64,000 bases of DNA from an uncultured Chloroflexia bacterium (GCA_963774265.1 CAVZDU010000007.1:384001-448000); one strand, 5' to 3'. Positions 6,621 to 63,857 are shown, counted from the first letter of the stretch. The notes: generated by a model not told the origin, from the letters alone. A program made the numbers and translations.

Positions 6621-7691
6621 GTGAACGAGCTTCTTTGGAAGGAAAACTGGGAGGAATCCCGGCAACACTACCTGGACTGGTGGGCCGGACACGGCCTGGT
6701 CATCAGCATGTGGGAGCACCTGCCCAAGGAAGGCGTGCCGCATGAGGAGGTGCCTGCCCCCGCGCCGGCCAGGGACTGGCAACAGTACTGGTTCGACCCG
6801 GAATGGCGCGCCGCCAATCTTCACTACCAGTTATCCCGCAGCTCGTTCAAGGCCGACATCCTGCCGGTGGCCAACACCCACCTCGGACCGGGCTCGCTGG
6901 CCGCGATCCTCGGCGCTGAGCTCGAGGGCGGCGAAGATACCATCTGGATCCATCCCCGCGCCGAACAAAGCGACGCCATCGTCCTCGATGAAAACAACCG
7001 GTGGTGGCGCACGCATCTCGACCTGATCCGCGCATGCAAACGCCGCGCGCAGGGCCGATACTTCGTCGGCTGCCCGGACTTGATCGAGGGCCTCGACACG
7101 CTGGCCGCGCTGCGCGGCACGCAGCCGGTGCTGCTGGATATGATGGATCGGCCCGCAGAACTGGCGCAGCAGGTGCAGGCGATCAACGACATCTGGTTCC
7201 AGGTCTTCGAGCGGATCTACGGCGAGATCAACGAAGGCGGCGAAATGGCCTTCTGCTACTTCTCCATCTGGGGGCCGGGCCGGGTGGCCAAGCTCCAGAG
7301 CGACATTTCGGGCATGATTTCAACCAGGAATTTCCGCCGGTTCGTGCAGCCGTTCATCCGCGAACAATGCCAGCGGTTGGACTATTCGCTCTATCACCTG
7401 GATGGGGTGGCCGCAATGCGCCACCTCGACGCACTGCTGGAAATCGAGGAGCTGAACGCCATCCAGTGGACGCCCGGCGTCGGCCAGCCGCAGGGCGGGG
7501 ATCCGTGTTGGTATGACCTGTACAAGCGGATACGCGCCGGGGGCAAGGCGATCATGCCCTGCTGGGTGGAGCTGAACGAATTGCAGCCCCTGCTCGACGC
7601 AGTGGGCCCGGCCGGGGTGAATGTGCTCATGCACTTTCAGTCGGAGCGGGACATCGATGCCGCACTAGAAATCGCGGCGCATTACCGGTGA
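6621..7691 (+). CDS. URO-D/methyltransferase-like TIM-barrel protein
   Basis: ALRG...LLDMMDRP, LQSD, YHLDG, IQWTPG motifs of the URO-D-like family. Confidence 0.7.
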   Translation: MNELLWKENWEESRQHYLDWWAGHGLVISMWEHLPKEGVPHEEVPAPAPARDWQQYWFDPEWRAANLHYQLSRSSFKADILPVANTHLGPGSLAAILGAELEGGEDTIWIHPRAEQSDAIVLDENNRWWRTHLDLIRACKRRAQGRYFVGCPDLIEGLDTLAALRGTQPVLLDMMDRPAELAQQVQAINDIWFQVFERIYGEINEGGEMAFCYFSIWGPGRVAKLQSDISGMISTRNFRRFVQPFIREQCQRLDYSLYHLDGVAAMRHLDALLEIEELNAIQWTPGVGQPQGGDPCWYDLYKRIRAGGKAIMPCWVELNELQPLLDAVGPAGVNVLMHFQSERDIDAALEIAAHYR

Positions 7692-30651: not shown

Positions 30652-30684
30652 AGGTGCCCGGCACTTCGAAAGTTCCGGGCACCT
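30652..30684. repeat. REP-like palindrome (AGGTGCCCGGCACT family)
   Basis: AGGTGCCCGGCACT-tcgaa-AGTTCCGGGCACCT. Confidence 0.85.
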
Positions 30685-36210: not shown

Positions 36211-36242
36211 AGGTGCCGGGCACTTCGCAAGTGCCCGACACC
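36211..36242. repeat. REP-like palindrome adjacent to the IS
   Basis: AGGTGCCGGGCACT-tcgca-AGTGCCCGACACC. Confidence 0.8.
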
Positions 36243-42621: not shown

Positions 42622-42648
42622 TCTGAATCGTACGACCTGAGACTGTGA

Positions 42649-42687
42649 GAAAGGGGCTGTCCATTGGTTTGGGCAGCCCCTTTTTTC
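42649..42687 (+). terminator. Intrinsic terminator
   Basis: AAGGGGCTGTCC...GGGCAGCCCC followed by a T run. Confidence 0.8.
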
Positions 42688-42713
42688 GAGGTCCGACCCA
42701 AAGGGGAGACACA

Positions 42714-44111
42714 ATGGGTTACTTTGAATTGCTGACCACGCAAGACCTGGACCAGATCCACGCGACAAGCATGCGGCTGTTGGCCAATGTGGGGGTTGCA
42801 TTTCCCCAGGCAGAAGTGTTACGGACCTTTCAGGAACACGGGGCCCGGGTCGATGGGGACCGCGTCTATCTGGCCGAGGCGCAGGTGATGGACGCACTTG
42901 CGAGCATCCCGAAACGGTTCACCCTCCATGCTCGCAATCCCAGGCGCAACGTGACGATCGGCGGCGGCAGTACGGTGTTTGCGCCGGGGTACGGCGCGCC
43001 GTTCCTCGTCGATGCCGAGGTGGGCAAACGCGGGGCCTCGTTGGAGGACTACCACAATCTCGCCAAACTGGCGCATGCGCTGCCAAACCAGGACGTGAGC
43101 GGCTACCTCCTCGTTGACCCGGATGTCCCGACAGCCCATTTGCACATGCTCTACGCCCACATGCTCCACTCGGATAAACCGTTCATCGGCAGCACCGCGG
43201 GTGCAGCGGGCGCTCGACAGACGCTGGAGATGGCCCGCATCCTCTACGGGGGAGACTTCGGTGACCGTGCGATCACCATCAGCTTGATCAACAGCCTGAG
43301 CCCTCTGGCCTATAGCACCGAGATGCTGGATGTGCTGATGGAATACGCGCCGGCCCGCCAGCCAATGGTGATTGCGGCGCTGGCCATGGCCGGCTCGACC
43401 GGACCGGTGACGCTGGCCGGCGTGCTGGCGATGCAGACAGCGGAGTTGTTGGCCGGGATTGTGCTGACCCAGTGGATCAGTCCGGGAATGCCCGTTGTCT
43501 TTGGATCCACCTCAACCAATATCGACATGAAGTCCGGCGCGTTGTGCATCGGCAGCCCTGAGCTTTCGCAGATGATATCCGCGCATGCCCAACTGGCGCG
43601 CTTCTATGGCATCCCATCGCGCAGCGGGGGTGCGCTCACTGACGCCAGCTACCCGGACGCGCAGGCCGGCTTCGAGTCCATGATGGGCCTGCTCACCACC
43701 GCCAACAGCGGCGTGGATTTCGTCCTCCACGCGGCGGGCATCCTCAGCTCGTACCTGGCCTTCTCGTATGAGAAGTTCGTGCTGGATGACGAGATCTGCG
43801 GCATGGTGCGGCGGCTGCGCCGCGGCTTCACCGTGGATCCCCAAACGCTGGCCTACGATGTCATCGCCAAGGTGGGGTCGGGTGGTAACTATCTGATGGA
43901 AGATCACACGGTGGAGCGGTGTCGCACGGAGTTCTGGAAGCCGGGGGTGTGCGATCGCAGCGGGTTGGAGGCGTGGATGGCCACGCGCCAGGACGCGGTG
44001 TCTCGTGCGCGCGTGCGCTGGCAGAAGCTGGTGTGCGATCACAAGGACCCCGAGCTGGATCAGGTCATCAGCCGCCAACTGGGGGCGTACCTGGAGAGTC
44101 ACATTTCATAG
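42714..44111 (+). CDS. MttB superfamily methyltransferase, non-pyrrolysine type
   Basis: SDKPF, NSLSPL, GSTGPVTLAG, RSGGALTD..PDAQAGFE, HAAG; no in-frame TAG. Confidence 0.9.
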   Translation: MGYFELLTTQDLDQIHATSMRLLANVGVAFPQAEVLRTFQEHGARVDGDRVYLAEAQVMDALASIPKRFTLHARNPRRNVTIGGGSTVFAPGYGAPFLVDAEVGKRGASLEDYHNLAKLAHALPNQDVSGYLLVDPDVPTAHLHMLYAHMLHSDKPFIGSTAGAAGARQTLEMARILYGGDFGDRAITISLINSLSPLAYSTEMLDVLMEYAPARQPMVIAALAMAGSTGPVTLAGVLAMQTAELLAGIVLTQWISPGMPVVFGSTSTNIDMKSGALCIGSPELSQMISAHAQLARFYGIPSRSGGALTDASYPDAQAGFESMMGLLTTANSGVDFVLHAAGILSSYLAFSYEKFVLDDEICGMVRRLRRGFTVDPQTLAYDVIAKVGSGGNYLMEDHTVERCRTEFWKPGVCDRSGLEAWMATRQDAVSRARVRWQKLVCDHKDPELDQVISRQLGAYLESHIS

Positions 44112-44266: not shown

Positions 44267-44776
44267 ATGCCATTCTGGCGCACATGCTATCATTTGGTGT
44301 GGGCGACAAAGAATCGTGAGTCACTGATCACACCGGAGATCGAGCCACGCCTCTACGGCTACCTCGTCCACAAAGCCTCAGAACTGGGAGTCTTTGTTTA
44401 CGCCATCAATGGCTGGACCGATCACGTCCATCTCATCGTTGCCATCCCCCCACACGTTTCTGTTTCAGACCTGGTCAAACATCTCAAGGGGACCTCTTCC
44501 CACGACCTCAACCAGCAGGGGTCCAGCATCTTTTTCACCTGGCAGCGTGGTTTCGGTGTCCTCACTGTCGGCGAGCGGCAAAGGCCTGCTGCCGAGCCGT
44601 ATGTCAGACAACAGAAAGTGCATCATCGCGACAGCACGACTGTCGCGTGGCTGGAGCGGTGTTCCGAAATCGACGATGGACCTGAAGAAACGTCATTGTC
44701 GGCCGCGTCTCTGCCAGTGCCTGCCGTGCGTGAATCACCAACGGCGTACGACCCTCTCGGCGAGCCGCCATTCTAG
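44267..44776 (+). CDS. tnpA: IS200/IS605-family Y1 HUH transposase
   Basis: YHLVWATKNR, DHVHL (HUH), LKG.SS, WQRGFG, YVRQQKVHH. Confidence 0.92.
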   Translation: MPFWRTCYHLVWATKNRESLITPEIEPRLYGYLVHKASELGVFVYAINGWTDHVHLIVAIPPHVSVSDLVKHLKGTSSHDLNQQGSSIFFTWQRGFGVLTVGERQRPAAEPYVRQQKVHHRDSTTVAWLERCSEIDDGPEETSLSAASLPVPAVRESPTAYDPLGEPPF

Positions 44777-52518: not shown

Positions 52519-53769
52519 TTATTCCTCGGCAGCTGGGTAGCTGCCCAGCAGTTTGAGAAACGCCGTGCGGGTCAGCAAACCCAGCAGCGCACGGTTAATG
52601 GTGGCGTCTTGCCAGTGTCCTTCGAGGTCCACATAGAAGACGTAGTGCCACGGCCGGTTGCGGCGGGGGCGGCTTTCAAGCTTGGTCAGGTTGATCCCGC
52701 GTGTCGCCAACTCGCCCAGGACATGGTACAGCGCACCCGGGGTGTGCATCGTGGCGAACACGATGGATGTCTTGTTGCGTTTCGCGGGGGGCGGCTCCTC
52801 GCGGCCCAGCAGGAAGAAGCGCGTGGTGTTATCCGGGGAATCCTCGATGCCCGCATCCAGCACCTCAAGCCCGTATATCTGCGCCGCGAGTGCGCTGGCG
52901 ATGGCTGCCGCGCCAGGTTCGGGCTTGGCTGCCAGCTCGCGCGCCGCGCCGGCCGTGTCGTAGGCGACGACCCCCTCCCACCCTCGCGTGCGCAGGTAGC
53001 GCTCGCATTGCGCCAGGGCCTGGTAGTGGGAGTGAACGCGCTCGATATCGGAGACCTGCGTCCCCGGCATGGCCATCAGGCTATGCCGCACGCGCAGTTT
53101 CACCTCGCCCACCACGCGCAGGTCGTGGTCCAGCAGCAGATCGAACGCCTGGTTAATGGAGCCTGCCTGCGAGTTCTCGACGGGCAGCAGGCCGAGGGTG
53201 GCGCGGCCCTCCTCGACGGCCCTGAAGACATCCTCAAAGGTCGGGCAGGCGAGGGTGGTCACCTGGGCGCCGAAACGTTGGTAGACGGCCTCTTGCGAGT
53301 AGGCCCCCGGCTCCCCCTGGAACGCGATCGTATGGTGGATGTCGAGCAGCTGCTTGCCGTTGGCGCGTGGCTCCTCAACCTGGGGCGCGGCCTCGGGCGG
53401 AGTGAACTCCGAACTCAGGTCGGGACGCAAGCGCACCGCGTCGCGGAGGTAGATGTGGCGGACGTCGTAAATGGGGCGCTCGGTGTTCCAGTGGATGAGG
53501 GTGCGGACGGTGTGGGGCAGGCTCTCCGCCACTTCGATCTCCACCGCACTCAGAAGCGGCACGTGATGCCAGCCGAACTCGCGGGCCGCGCGGGCCGGGT
53601 ATGCGGCGTCAAGATCGGGAGTCACGGTGAAGATGGCGCTTGCAACGTCTTCAGGGTTGACGCTGTTTGCAGTCACGATGGCGGCGAGCAGCTCCTGGGT
53701 GGCCTGCAAGATCGCTTCGGCGGAATTGGACTCCACGGTGGTTGCGCCGCGGATGCCTCGAACGGCCAT
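52519..53769 (-). CDS. pheA: AroH-type chorismate mutase fused to prephenate dehydratase and ACT domain
   Basis: VRGIRGATT...LRPDL (AroH); [25 protein letters not shown]. Confidence 0.92.
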
Positions 53770-53801
53770 GATAAGACCTCCTGCTGGTTTGAGTTACGAT
53801 C

Positions 53802-53837
53802 AAAAAAAAGAGCGTGGAAGCTTGGGCCTCCACGCTC
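53802..53837 (-). terminator. Attenuator terminator upstream of the aro operon
   Basis: GAGCGTGGA-ggcccaagct-TCCACGCTC-TTTTTTTT on the minus strand, 32 bp before the first start codon. Confidence 0.9.
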
Positions 53838-53861
53838 GGCTAAACTAGGCTGGACTGGGCA

Positions 53862-53963
53862 TCATCGCTGCAGCGGCACACCATTTGCAGCCGGCGGGGG
53901 GCAAAGCCGGGGCGGGCTGGTAAAATAATAGTAGAAATTGGCGCCGCTGAGCTGAGAACGCAT
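53862..53963 (-). CDS. 33-aa Phe/Tyr leader peptide
   Basis: MRSQLSGANFYYYFTSPPRLCPPPAANGVPLQR*; GAGGT RBS; lies between promoter and terminator. Confidence 0.82.
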   Translation of the reverse strand: MRSQLSGANFYYYFTSPPRLCPPPAANGVPLQR

Positions 53964-54004
53964 CGACCGATGACCTCAGGTCCGGAATCTCACGAAGTGG
54001 CGAG

Positions 54005-54034
54005 ATCATAGCACGCCGGCCTTGGATTTGTCAA
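54005..54034 (-). promoter_or_regulatory. Sigma70 promoter of the aro operon
   Basis: TTGACA, 18 bp spacer, TGcTATGAT on the minus strand. Confidence 0.75.
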
Positions 54035-54069
54035 ACCGCGAATTTTGCCACACAGGTCGCGTGCCGTGC

Positions 54070-54102
54070 AGGTGCCGGGCACTTTCAAAGTGCCCGGCAC
54101 CT
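54070..54102. repeat. REP-like palindrome
   Basis: AGGTGCCGGGCACT-ttcaa-AGTGCCCGGCACCT; a short related copy at 54366-54380. Confidence 0.85.
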
Positions 54103-54497
54103 TGTGCCATGACACCGGTAACGCTGTAACACCCAATACCTTAAGATGTGTATACCCCTTTATCAATCATTTTTGCTGAGCCAGGACGTTCTTGCAGGCC
54201 TCAAAAAAGATAGAGAGGGGGGAGTATATATCTTATGGTAGCAGGTGTTACTGTGTTACGGTGGTCCTGCACGAGGGCGTGGTCGGCCAGTCGTCACCGC
54301 CCGAGCAAGGGCGCGGCGCTGCCGACAGTCTGTGGCCCAAATGTCGAGATTTGCGACATTTGCGCAGGTGCCCGGCACCTTGAGCAATGCGGGTGACGCT
54401 GGTCCGTGATGGGCGGACGCGCCCCAGGATGCAGTCGAGCGATCCCCGGATGATGTTCACAGTCGTACGCCTACTTCTGAAAGGAGAAAGTCGAAAC

Positions 54498-54821
54498 ATG
54501 GTTGTTCGAATCTGGCACGGATGGACCACTCCGACCAACGCCGATGAATATGAGGCACTGCTTAAGGAGGAAATCTTCGTCGGCATTCAGAACCGGCACA
54601 TTCGCGGCTTCCAGGGCATTCAGCTTCTCCGGCGCGAACTCGGCGCAGAAGTCGAGTTTGTGACGATTATGTGCTTTGATTCGCTGGATGCTGTCCGGGA
54701 GTTTGCAGGCGAGGACTACGAAGCAAGTGTTGTCCCGGCGCAGGCAAGAGCAGTGCTCTCCCATTTTGATGAACGATCGCAGCACTATGAACTCAGGGCC
54801 GAGAGGAGCGGGGCAGGCTGA
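54498..54821 (+). CDS. Antibiotic biosynthesis monooxygenase (ABM)-like protein
   Basis: AAGGAG RBS; RIWHGWT, FAGEDYE, FDERSQHYE. Confidence 0.85.
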   Translation: MVVRIWHGWTTPTNADEYEALLKEEIFVGIQNRHIRGFQGIQLLRRELGAEVEFVTIMCFDSLDAVREFAGEDYEASVVPAQARAVLSHFDERSQHYELRAERSGAG

Positions 54822-55019
54822 CGCACATGACTTGTCGCTCGCGCGCTCAGCCGCGTGGGACACGCCAGGCCGAGAATAGCCACCGGTCCGGCCGCCGGCT
54901 GCGCTAACCCCATCGGCGACACGATCTTGACGCCGGTCGCACTCCTGATACAATAATTGCGGGATGGCGGCCGATTTCAGGCGCGTGACCGGTCGGGACA
55001 CCGAAGGAGATGCGACCCC

Positions 55020-55757
55020 ATGGATGCGACCCCCTCGCTGCCGGCAGAAAAGATCCGGGTGCTGATCGTGGACGATCATGCCATCGTGCGCCAGGGACTG
55101 CGGACCTTCCTGGAGTTGCAGACCGAAGGTTCCGCTCTGCCCATCGAGGTCGTGGGCGAGGCGGTCAATGGCATCGAGGCGATCGAGCTCAGCCGGCGCA
55201 CGCAACCGGATGTCGTCCTGCTCGATCTGGTCATGCCGCAGATGGACGGCATCCAGGCCACGCCCAGGATCCTCGAAAGCAGCCCTCACACACGGGTCGT
55301 CATCCTCACCAGCTTCGGCGAAGAAGACAAGGTTCTGCCGGCCATACGCGCCGGCGCGCAGGGGTACCTGCTCAAGGATATTCCGCCGGCCGAGCTGGTG
55401 CGCGCGGTGCGCGACGTGCATCTCGGCAAGGTGCAGTTGCACCCGGAAGCCGCCCGGAGACTGATGTCGGCGGTTGCGGCATCTCCGGATGCGTCATCTG
55501 CGGACGCGGCGAAGGAAGAGACGGCCAAAAGCCGCGCCGCGACCAAACCCGAGAGCGGATTGACCGGACGCGAGCAGGAAATCCTGGGCCTGATCGCCGG
55601 CGGCTTGAGCAACCGCGAGATCGCCGCGAAACTGGTCATCAGCCAAAAGACGGTCAAGACTCACGTCAGCAACATCCTCGGCAAACTGGGCCTGGCAGAC
55701 CGCACGCAGGCCGCCATCTACGCGCTGCGGCACGGCCCACCCACGGATTCGGGTTGA
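55020..55757 (+). CDS. NarL/LuxR family response regulator
   Basis: IVDDH, LLDLVMP, LTGREQEIL, TVKTHVSNI. Confidence 0.95.
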   Translation: MDATPSLPAEKIRVLIVDDHAIVRQGLRTFLELQTEGSALPIEVVGEAVNGIEAIELSRRTQPDVVLLDLVMPQMDGIQATPRILESSPHTRVVILTSFGEEDKVLPAIRAGAQGYLLKDIPPAELVRAVRDVHLGKVQLHPEAARRLMSAVAASPDASSADAAKEETAKSRAATKPESGLTGREQEILGLIAGGLSNREIAAKLVISQKTVKTHVSNILGKLGLADRTQAAIYALRHGPPTDSG

Positions 55758-56959
55758 TGCGCACAACGGGCGTCTGGTTGATCTTCGCTGCGGTGGCAGT
55801 GCGCGGGGTCGTGGTTTTGTCCGGTGAGCCCCGGTTCCTGCCGGCGATGGGATTGCTGGCCGCGTATGGCTTGCTCCTATTCGCCGCAACGTGGATCAGG
55901 CATCGCCGAAGCCCCGGGCTCCCACTGTCTCCGGGGGGCAAATGGTGGGCGCTGGCTTACCTCAGTCTTCAATTTTCCATCGTGCTGCGGCTGCTGGTCG
56001 TCTCGACATATGAGGACTTCTTCGCGAGCCTTGTCATCCCACTGGGCCTGGACGCGGTGTTCTTTTTCGGCACACGGGTCGGCTTTCTCTGTATCGCAGC
56101 CTTCTCGCTGGCGCTGATCCGCACATTGCTGTTTTCGGACGTGGGCCAGCTTTTTGGACTGGCAATGGGAGTGCTCTACAGCGGATTGTCCTTCCTGGTC
56201 GGCGGATATGCCCACCAGGTACAAAAGGCCGAAGCCAGCCAGGACCACAACCGGCGCACCTTCGACGAACTGCAGGCCGCGCACCGCCAGCTGCAAGGCT
56301 ACGCCGACCAGGCGACCAGCCTGGCTGTCGAACACGAACGTAACCGGTTGGCGCGCGACCTGCACGACTCGGTCACGCAGACGGTCTTCAGCATGAACCT
56401 GGCCGCGCAGTCCACCCGCCTGCTGCTCGATCGGGACCCGTCCCGTGCCGCGGGCCAGTTGCTCCGCCTCGAGGAGCTGGCCGCGAACGCGCAGGCTGAG
56501 ATCCAGTCCCTCGTCACGCAATTGCGCCCGCGTTCCGTGACCGACGACGGACTCCCGACCGCGCTGCGGCGCCTGGCCGCGGAACGACAGGAGCGAGACG
56601 ATCTGCAGGTCTCGCTGGAAGTCAAGGGCGAGAGAGCCGTGTCCGAAGCGGAGGCAGCCGGGCTGTACGCCATCGCGCAGGAGGCGCTGACCAACGTTGC
56701 CAAACACAGCGGTGCGCGCCAGGCAACCGTCCGTCTGGATGTGACCACGGCGGGCGCCTGCCTGGAGATCGAGGATCGCGGCGCGGGCTTCGATCTGGCC
56801 GCAGCCTCGAGCCAGCCCGGACATTTCGGCCTGGCGGGCATGACCGAGCGGGCGCGTGAGATCGGCTGGCGCCTGTCGATCGAGGCGCGGCCTCGCCAGG
56901 GCACGTGCATCCGCGTGACCGCGAATCCGTCCGGGGGTGGCCCGGGAGGTGTGCAATGA
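55757..56959 (+). CDS. Membrane sensor histidine kinase (HisKA_3 + HATPase)
   Basis: ERNRLARDLHDSV, QEALTNVAKH, DRGAGF, GLAGMTER. Confidence 0.93.
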   Translation: MRTTGVWLIFAAVAVRGVVVLSGEPRFLPAMGLLAAYGLLLFAATWIRHRRSPGLPLSPGGKWWALAYLSLQFSIVLRLLVVSTYEDFFASLVIPLGLDAVFFFGTRVGFLCIAAFSLALIRTLLFSDVGQLFGLAMGVLYSGLSFLVGGYAHQVQKAEASQDHNRRTFDELQAAHRQLQGYADQATSLAVEHERNRLARDLHDSVTQTVFSMNLAAQSTRLLLDRDPSRAAGQLLRLEELAANAQAEIQSLVTQLRPRSVTDDGLPTALRRLAAERQERDDLQVSLEVKGERAVSEAEAAGLYAIAQEALTNVAKHSGARQATVRLDVTTAGACLEIEDRGAGFDLAAASSQPGHFGLAGMTERAREIGWRLSIEARPRQGTCIRVTANPSGGGPGGVQ

Positions 56960-63777: not shown

Positions 63778-63857
63778 AGGTGCCCGGCACTTTTGCTGGG
63801 AAAGGTGCCCGGCACTCAGTACTCAGGTGCCCGGCACTTCGAAAGTGCCGGGCACCT
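63778..63857. repeat. REP-like cluster: three direct copies and one inverted copy
   Basis: AGGTGCCCGGCACT three times, then AGTGCCGGGCACCT. Confidence 0.88.

Follow-up and report, generated by a model that had tools for sequence, protein, structure and literature searches.

The stretch analysed here, 64,000 nt of an uncultured Chloroflexia bacterium (GCA_963774265.1 CAVZDU010000007.1:384001-448000) and in the following called the window, carries on its minus strand an operon for the biosynthesis of phenylalanine (Phe) and tyrosine (Tyr), which is preceded by a short leader with an upstream open reading frame (uORF) rich in aromatic codons, a putative leader-peptide attenuator. Pfam searches confirmed the eight genes that the first-pass annotation of this DNA had described as a complete shikimate-to-Phe/Tyr operon (Table 1). 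All of them point in one direction, and neighbouring genes overlap or are joined by short junctions. They cover all seven steps of the common shikimate pathway together with chorismate mutase, prephenate dehydratase and prephenate dehydrogenase, and the aminotransferase step is not among them. The listed open reading frame (ORF) of aroE and aroA overlap by 209 nt, so the true aroE start is probably located later. The closest relatives of the host are uncultured Anaerolineales, Anaerolineae and Chloroflexota metagenome-assembled genomes, in line with the Chloroflexota origin that had been suspected from the DNA.

Table 1: Features of the leader, the aro operon and their surroundings, with positions counted within the 64,000-nt window.
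Feature	Position	Strand	Evidence or remark
-35 hexamer TTGACA	54034-54029	minus	consensus scan; TTGACA aligned in nearly all related leaders
-10 hexamer TATGAT, TG-extended	54010-54005	minus	consensus scan
Shine-Dalgarno GAGGT of the leader ORF	53977-53973	minus	9 nt ahead of ATG; GAGG-like motifs aligned in relatives
Leader ORF MRSQLSGANFYYYFTSPPRLCPPPAANGVPLQR, 33 codons plus stop	53963-53862	minus	ATG at 53963, TGA at 53864-53862
Regulatory codons TTC TAC TAT TAT TTT (FYYYF)	53936-53922	minus	sequence reading and six-frame count
Segment 1 ACCAGCCCG, candidate anti-antiterminator	53921-53913	minus	pairs with GGCUG of segment 2 (untranslated minimum-free-energy and centroid fold)
Segment 2 GCCCCCCGCCGGCTGCAAA, predicted antiterminator 5' strand within the uORF	53902-53884	minus	folds and 66-leader pairing test
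Segment 3 TTTAGCCGAGCGTGGAGGC, predicted antiterminator 3' strand	53844-53826	minus	overlaps terminator 5' arm
Intrinsic terminator hairpin	53837-53810	minus	12 bp, 4-nt loop, -21.8 kcal/mol
T8 tract of the terminator	53809-53802	minus	sequence and terminator scan
Shine-Dalgarno AGGAGG of gene 1	53782-53777	minus	ahead of ATG at 53769
Gene 1, AroH-type chorismate mutase fused to prephenate dehydratase and ACT, 416 aa	53769-52519	minus	Pfam CM_1, PDT, ACT
Gene 2, DAHP synthase with N-terminal FXD domain	52508-51495	minus	Pfam DAHP_synth_1, DAHP_snth_FXD
Gene 3, prephenate dehydrogenase TyrA	51495-50650	minus	Pfam PDH_N, PDH_C
tyrA-aroA spacer, 83 nt	50649-50567	minus	very C/T-rich, FFFF in one frame
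FFFF in the tyrA-aroA spacer	50604-50593		no start codon, no hairpin
Gene 4, EPSP synthase AroA	50566-49208	minus	Pfam EPSP_synthase
Gene 5, shikimate dehydrogenase AroE, listed ORF	49416-48352	minus	Pfam Shikimate_dh_N from residue 85
Gene 6, chorismate synthase AroC	48348-47164	minus	Pfam Chorismate_synt
Gene 7, AroK-AroB, shikimate kinase fused to 3-dehydroquinate synthase	47131-45530	minus	Pfam SKI, DHQ_synthase, DHQS_C
Gene 8, type II 3-dehydroquinase AroQ	45518-45087	minus	Pfam DHquinase_II
IS200-like transposase gene	44267-44776	plus	Y1_Tnp
MttB-family trimethylamine methyltransferase homologue	42645-44111	plus
Histidine kinase gene	55010-56959	plus	HisKA_3, HATPase_c
Two ORFs between histidine kinase gene and leader	54248-54586, 54471-55442	minus	no Pfam family
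Sites of the 12-nt motif GGTGCCGGGCAC	54071-54101, 54367-54379, 36212-36242, 30653-30665, 63779-63856

The two promoter hexamers are separated by an 18-nt spacer, match the consensus at 11 of 12 positions and line up across the leaders of relatives; the consensus scan returned three promoter-like sites in the surrounding 2 kb compared to 0.4 expected. The leader ORF has its own start codon and ribosome-binding site, and the uORFs of the relatives also start in frame. The aromatic run of the leader is not a product of chance: no run of at least five aromatic residues other than FYYYF occurs in any of the six frames of the window (128,000 codon positions, 62.6% G+C), and the leader is conserved in relatives and in the class, as described below. 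The terminator, the sole one found in the surrounding 2 kb, separates the leader ORF from the first structural gene. Promoter, GAGGT, the 33-residue ORF, the FYYYF codons, the GC-rich hairpin and its eight T residues had all been pointed out before, and every one of them was recovered on the minus strand at the same place. The 204-nt leader folds with -74.5 kcal/mol (z = -2.96), which was equalled by one of 200 shuffled sequences.

The last Phe codon is 19 nt away from segment 2 in the window, a distance for which no reliable class-wide figure exists as later aromatic residues disturbed the measurement. From segment 2 to the stop codon it is 29 nt (median 20 nt, interquartile range 16-28, over 66 leaders of the class), and from the stop codon to the 5' arm of the terminator 26 nt (median 29.5 nt, interquartile range 26-34, over the same leaders). 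With this arrangement a ribosome stalled on the aromatic codons would leave segment 2 free, and a ribosome finishing the leader peptide would sit within the would-be antiterminator loop, near segment 2. Most leaders also possess a purine-rich, Shine-Dalgarno-like stretch after segment 2 (GGGAGG, GGAGG or GGUGGAG; columns ~37-47 of alignment A3, described below), which reads GGCUG in the window (~53886-53893) and might form a small local hairpin with CUUC of segment 2, cause a ribosome pause or be a part of an inner helix.

To follow the leader in relatives we used the chorismate mutase-prephenate dehydratase (CM-PDT) fusion protein, which was present in 48 of 61 related genomes and led to 30 loci. 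Two of these (L016, L029) are truncated by the end of their contig and were left out. Each of the other 28 upstream regions contains a uORF with at least three consecutive aromatic residues (FYFYY, YFFFYY, FYYFYF and YYYFYF are examples) at most ~360 nt upstream of the gene, and 27 of them a hairpin of -16 kcal/mol or lower followed by a T-rich tail; in L028 the aromatic uORF is kept and the hairpin is weak (-6.9 kcal/mol). Outside the aromatic run the peptide is not conserved across genera, in contrast to the nucleotide motifs. In the alignment of 26 family leaders (A1) the invariant columns comprise a core C.CCG within the uORF (CGCGCCGG in most leaders) and, in the terminator, GAGCGTGG.G / CCACGCT. 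The window shares the signature of the family, that is an F/Y-rich uORF, the segment 2 core C(G/A)CG-CC, the terminator GCGUGGAG...CUCCACGC and aromatic-pathway genes, and it reaches 134.1 bits with the covariance model R1 built on A1, being itself one of the training sequences.

Using R1 (E <= 0.001) on 151 genomes drawn evenly from the class Anaerolineae we obtained matches in 75 genomes and in 55 of 101 genera, or in 54 of 112 genomes if only those of high quality are counted, and the leaders returned carry aromatic runs. Behind 26 of these returned leaders, the first ORF encodes a type I chorismate mutase in 22 cases, prephenate dehydratase in two and DAHP synthase in one, and belongs to no family in the last. 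The uORF is thus conserved both in close relatives and in the class, a point on which the proposal of an attenuator could have failed. Four of the 74 sources to which R1 was applied (L028, L061, L062, L067) gave no full-length match. A sample of 151 genomes from the whole phylum gave seven matches, including the genome of the window itself and one of the same class; of the five outside the class two are real leaders, L180 before a DAHP synthase gene and L181 before a chorismate mutase gene, and three (L182-L184) were rejected as plain terminators. Among the genomes searched, the leader family is essentially confined to the class Anaerolineae.

The codons of the aromatic run were counted in 64 distinct leaders, in each case over the zone bounded by the outermost aromatic residues (504 residues in total). 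Aromatic residues make up 412 of them (82%), namely 229 Y, 164 F and 19 W, and both synonymous codons are used in each case (TAT 141, TAC 88, TTT 129, TTC 35). The first codon position is T in 422 of the 504 codons and the third varies between C and T. Judged by these leaders, selection on the aromatic run acts at the level of codons.

In the untranslated fold the whole uORF of the window forms one long hairpin, in which GGCUGCAAAUGG, a part of segment 2, is the pairing partner of the aromatic codons and of ACCAGCC (segment 1), and the terminator is left free. If the 3' arm of the terminator is absent and the aromatic codons are covered by a 30-nt footprint, GCC.CCCGCCGGCUG of segment 2 is predicted to pair with UAGCCGAGCGUGGAGGC of segment 3, a stretch that includes the 5' arm of the terminator; the partner of segment 2 within this arm is GAGCGUGG. 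The pairing between CCGCCGGCTG... and ...AGCCGAGCGTGG that had been proposed earlier is thus part of the predicted fold if the 3' arm is missing or blocked, with the exception of its AAA:UUU end, which is not used. Truncated transcripts lacking the 3' arm were folded for all 28 leaders, counting a 5' arm if it was at least 60% paired upstream. This was the case in 17 leaders without a footprint, in 25 with the footprint in the middle of the aromatic run and in 24 with the footprint on the last aromatic codon.

Both helices were examined in 66 distinct full-length leaders using a MAFFT alignment (A3) that was fitted to neither structure. For the nine pairs of the antiterminator 86.7% of the cells are paired compared to 26-60% (60.4% at most) with a slid partner, and for the nine pairs of the terminator 92.8% compared to 28-58%. 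Compensatory changes were found in 13 cells of four antiterminator pairs, a number reached by one of 500 shuffles, and in 22 cells of six terminator pairs, reached by none of 500, where the shuffle counts are not probabilities because the sequences are related. Some changes involve three segments at once. L147 and L155 combine the arm GCGUGAGGC, the 3' arm GCCUCACGC and GCCUCGC in segment 2, with GGAG to GAGG in the arm alongside UU to CU in segment 2, and L130 and L136 combine the arm GCGUGGGA, the 3' arm UCCCACGC and CUCACGC in segment 2, with A to G in the arm alongside U to C in segment 2. Mutually exclusive folds as expected of an attenuator are thus predicted, and the conservation of the antiterminator helix is accompanied by a few compensatory changes.

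The comparison of genomes with more than one match to R1 or to the chassis-only model R2, or with other cargo, revealed that the leader codons track the genes behind them, which we regard as the new outcome of this analysis together with the occurrence of the module with threonine (Thr), histidine (His) and Tyr codons before aspartate kinase, hisD and tyrS, respectively. G052 and G098 (from L142/L143 and L157/L149) have the runs VYYYAYYYA and AYYYGYYYA before the genes for chorismate mutase, DAHP synthase and TyrA, and FFFGWYF and FFFFWWFF before a separate DAHP synthase. G132 (from L141/L158) has YYYYYY before chorismate mutase and TyrA and YYFYFTY before prephenate dehydratase and DAHP synthase. 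Tyr-only runs (YYYAYYY, YYYGYYY, YYYYYY) accordingly head chorismate mutase and TyrA operons without prephenate dehydratase, and the genomes with two leaders offer an attenuation-based counterpart of isozyme-specific control. Tyr codons also precede tyrosyl-tRNA synthetase genes (YYVYA in L173, G117:C149, identified by Pfam; YYAYA in L167, G156:C15, assigned by eye only) and the gene of a 610-aa protein in which a B3_4 domain is fused to a class-I W/Y synthetase (YYAYIYA in L163, G099:C32). Aromatic runs in L147 and L148 (G092) and in L154, L155 and L160 (G046) are followed by genes for Liv-type Peripla_BP_6 binding proteins and LivHMGF-like permeases and ATPases, which are candidates for ATP-binding cassette (ABC) importers of aromatic amino acids.

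Besides these aromatic leaders, L151 (G162:C81, leader ~7503-7638) encodes SYTTTTGTPAT, with the run YTTTTGT, ahead of aspartate kinase and aspartate-semialdehyde dehydrogenase (asd) genes, and was found by R1, trained on aromatic leaders only, with E = 2e-4 per genome and 1.1e-5 over the collected loci. L156 (G083:C11) with CFSTFTFTTT alternates Phe and Thr codons before genes for prephenate dehydratase, a DAHP synthase paralogue and aspartate kinase, so that mixed codons coincide with a mixed cargo. Finally, L162 (G080:C211) and L169 (G122:C213) combine HIHSHSHHH with the segment CCGCGCCGGGAGG and the terminator GGGCGUGGCC...GGCCACGCCC ahead of the histidinol dehydrogenase gene hisD, and were detected by R2, which had no His leader in its training set, with E = 1.4e-5 and 4.6e-4. 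Such non-aromatic cases are few and partly near noise, as plain terminators appear from about E = 7e-4. These comparisons argue strongly that codons and not a ligand pocket would set the specificity of the leader.

We consider the leader of the aro operon very probably to be a ribosome-mediated leader-peptide transcription attenuator sensing charged tRNA-Phe and tRNA-Tyr. What the analysis shows is its anatomy, its conservation, the complementarity of its segments with partial covariation and the match between codons and cargo, and the interpretation of the first-pass annotation, which had recognised the layout of E. coli pheL and trpL here, is supported. We infer that the uORF is translated, that ribosomes can stall in it, that the two folds compete kinetically and that segment 1 acts as anti-antiterminator. 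Transcription would start ~35 nt upstream of the 33-codon leader ORF. If Phe and Tyr are plentiful, the ribosome would pass FYYYF and segment 2 and reach the stop codon, with segment 2 being covered by the ribosome or drawn back into the hairpin with segment 1, so that the 12-bp terminator could form and transcription would end at the T8 tract ahead of aroH-pheA. If Phe or Tyr is scarce, the ribosome would stall on FYYYF and cover segment 1, and the free segment 2 could pair with segment 3 once the latter has been transcribed. This pairing would block the terminator and let RNA polymerase enter the eight-gene operon.

Several observations weigh against this model. In the window the terminator fold exceeds the antiterminator fold in stability by 10 kcal/mol, and the mean difference over the 28 leaders is 7.5 kcal/mol; the switch must therefore be kinetic, with the antiterminator winning only by being transcribed first. 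When a stall is modelled, the terminator persists in the full-length minimum-free-energy structure of all leaders but L011, that is in 27 of 28, and is at most partly eroded in three of these, whereas L011 loses all of it; L028 is without a terminator in this structure from the outset. As a footprint at the stop codon still leaves the 5' arm paired upstream in 22 of 28 leaders, the equilibrium model alone does not separate a stalled from a finished ribosome. Hardly any variation is seen in the lower part of the terminator stem and in the core of segment 2, and the support for the antiterminator comes mostly from conservation and less from covariation: RNAalifold on the alignment of 26 leaders gave only the terminator with zero compensatory pairs, and covariation emerged only in the class-wide set. 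The segment 1:2 hairpin pairs well in the genus of the window and several others and is not conserved class-wide. Furthermore, transcription of the aroF operon of Corynebacterium glutamicum, which has the leader aroR, is reported in PMC11802643 to increase under Phe limitation and not to be affected by Tyr supply, and a Tyr codon in a leader is therefore no guarantee of Tyr sensing.

An alternative would be an attenuator controlled by a ligand or a protein (a riboswitch, a T-box or a TRAP- or PyrR-like protein) that acts on the module of segment 2 and terminator, the uORF being incidental. The core of segment 2 is near-invariant, as is the base of the terminator, though the CM-PDT proteins are only 63-87% identical, and this could mark a binding site; the conserved purine-rich GGAGG-like stretch after segment 2 also counts in favour of this alternative. 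However, no T-box (RF00230, as listed in PMC3766115) and no leader family was found by Rfam cmscan in positions 53000-55000 on both strands with permissive filters and E <= 10. The same search gave no match to Phe_leader or the other amino-acid leaders (Trp, His, Thr, Leu, leu/phe), and nine weak matches to microRNA, small RNA and antitoxin models were rejected as they reached 11-22 bits compared to gathering scores of 35-80. The T-box, named as a possible alternative in the first-pass annotation, is accordingly not favoured. There is also no conserved aptamer besides the alternative helices, as RNAalifold gives the terminator only. Wherever upstream sequence is available, the leader keeps an aromatic run that can be read from an in-frame start codon, with the exception of L122 (G083), in which the run alternates Phe and Thr codons, and the codon identity shifts with the cargo to Tyr-only, Phe and tryptophan (Trp), Thr or His, which is unexpected for a fixed site. 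We regard control by a ligand or protein as improbable.

Equally improbable in our opinion is a constitutive or globally modulated partial terminator, responding for example to NusA/NusG or growth rate, with the uORF acting through mRNA protection or re-initiation. Such a terminator would agree with the thermodynamic dominance of the terminator fold in all equilibrium models, yet it would leave unexplained the 82% of aromatic residues in the zones of 64 leaders, the match between codons and cargo and the compensatory upkeep of the complementarity between segment 2 and the terminator arm. That the conservation reflects a functional small peptide encoded by the uORF is the least credible of the three, as the SPPRLCPPPAG-like motif recurring in the genus and several related genera tracks the RNA segments 1 and 2 (CCAGCCCGCC...CCGCCGGCUGG) and is replaced by unrelated residues in other genera while the nucleotide core CGCGCCGG persists, with the aromatic run as the sole conservation at the amino-acid level.

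Attenuation by a leader peptide is textbook knowledge, and several known systems can be compared to the leader described here. The attenuator of E. coli pheL-pheA, which we take to be the Rfam family Phe_leader (RF01859), and that of pheM-pheST likewise consist of a short ORF with codons for the end product followed by alternative hairpins, and pheL also lies upstream of a chorismate mutase-prephenate dehydratase gene. In contrast to pheL-pheA, the run of the window mixes Phe and Tyr, its cargo consists of eight genes for the common pathway and both branches instead of pheA alone, the host belongs to the Chloroflexota and there is no match in sequence or structure to any Rfam family. In E. coli trpL-trpE, 1:2, 2:3 and 3:4 hairpins can form and the antiterminator is kinetically favoured over the more stable terminator. 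The leader of the window would follow the same four-segment logic, with a stop codon placed so that a finishing ribosome would interfere with the antiterminator, and differs in its unrelated sequence and in the 1:2 hairpin, which is missing or different in many Anaerolineae. The mechanism in pheL-type systems, stalling on leader codons and alternative antiterminator and terminator hairpins, is outlined in PMC11802643.

Mixed Phe/Tyr leader peptides, of which the first-pass annotation knew no description, do have a precedent, as the leader aroR (Phe-Tyr-Phe) ahead of the aroF (DAHP synthase) operon of C. glutamicum has already been described (summarised in PMC11802643). By this account, aroR would be the nearest functional analogue of the window leader: both have a mixed Phe/Tyr leader peptide and a DAHP-synthase-containing operon, controlled in the case of aroR by ribosome stalling. 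In contrast to the window leader, aroR is actinobacterial, has a run of three residues and is insensitive to Tyr in that account, and the two are likened by description and not by sequence. The primary study of aroR is reportedly that of Neshat et al. 2014. Full-text literature searches, and searches for terms within PMC9413887, PMC4833913, PMC2965389, PMC3766115 and PMC1262725, revealed no account of such a leader for Chloroflexi or Anaerolineae. The multi-phylum attenuator survey of Lopatovskaya et al. 2010 (PubMed 20198868) could bear on priority.

The mechanism itself will not surprise a specialist. The RNA family is uncatalogued, being absent from Rfam, and widespread in Anaerolineae, where about every second genome sampled contains it. 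The very probable attenuator of the aro operon would extend classical leader-peptide attenuation, best known in Proteobacteria and Actinobacteria, to the Chloroflexota. For annotation, the leader would mark its operon as regulated by Phe/Tyr, and the covariance model can be used in uncultured Anaerolineae for genes of aromatic biosynthesis, tyrS and candidate transporters of aromatic amino acids. The main points of interest are the codons matched to the cargo and the possible modular reuse, and the codon-matched leaders together with the apparent reuse of the module for Thr and His represent a natural experiment on specificity.

Common descent of the Thr, His, tyrS and aromatic modules is a hypothesis. 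Tentatively, and with slightly more doubt than belief, we can imagine a class-wide Anaerolineae superfamily in which one module (C(G/A)CGCC... : GCGUGGAG) was duplicated and re-aimed by swaps of the regulatory codons. Its targets might then be whole aro operons with Phe and Tyr codons, tyrA operons and tyrS with Tyr alone and a separate DAHP synthase isozyme with Phe and Trp, and perhaps also Liv-type ABC transporters with codons for aromatic amino acids, aspartate kinase-asd with Thr and hisD with His. If this is true, leader-peptide attenuation and not T-boxes or repressors would be the main amino-acid regulatory network of Anaerolineae, and the superfamily could serve as a natural series for the evolution of attenuator specificity.

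Not all matches turned out to be leaders. Among 20 new R2 matches that were inspected, the weak ones L171, L174, L177 and L178 are plain terminators after coding sequence, and L165, L168, L172 and L176 are ambiguous in nature. L159, the sole match in the window's own genome to an over-strict terminator-core pattern that missed the element of the window itself, is an ordinary bidirectional terminator without a leader. Within the operon, the FFFF run in the tyrA-aroA spacer was rejected as a second leader as it has neither a start codon nor a hairpin.

An IS200-like transposase gene lies just past the last gene of the operon and adjoins the gene of an MttB-family trimethylamine methyltransferase homologue. 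On the other side, a histidine kinase gene is located divergently upstream of the leader, and the two minus-strand ORFs between them belong to no Pfam family. With at most one mismatch allowed, the window contains 16 copies of the 12-nt motif GGTGCCGGGCAC or its near-palindromic variant, compared to about one expected. Some of these copies are inverted pairs, one of which, located 37 nt upstream of the -35 hexamer of the aro promoter, forms a perfect hairpin, and the motif looks like a dispersed repeat similar to the repetitive extragenic palindromic (REP) elements.

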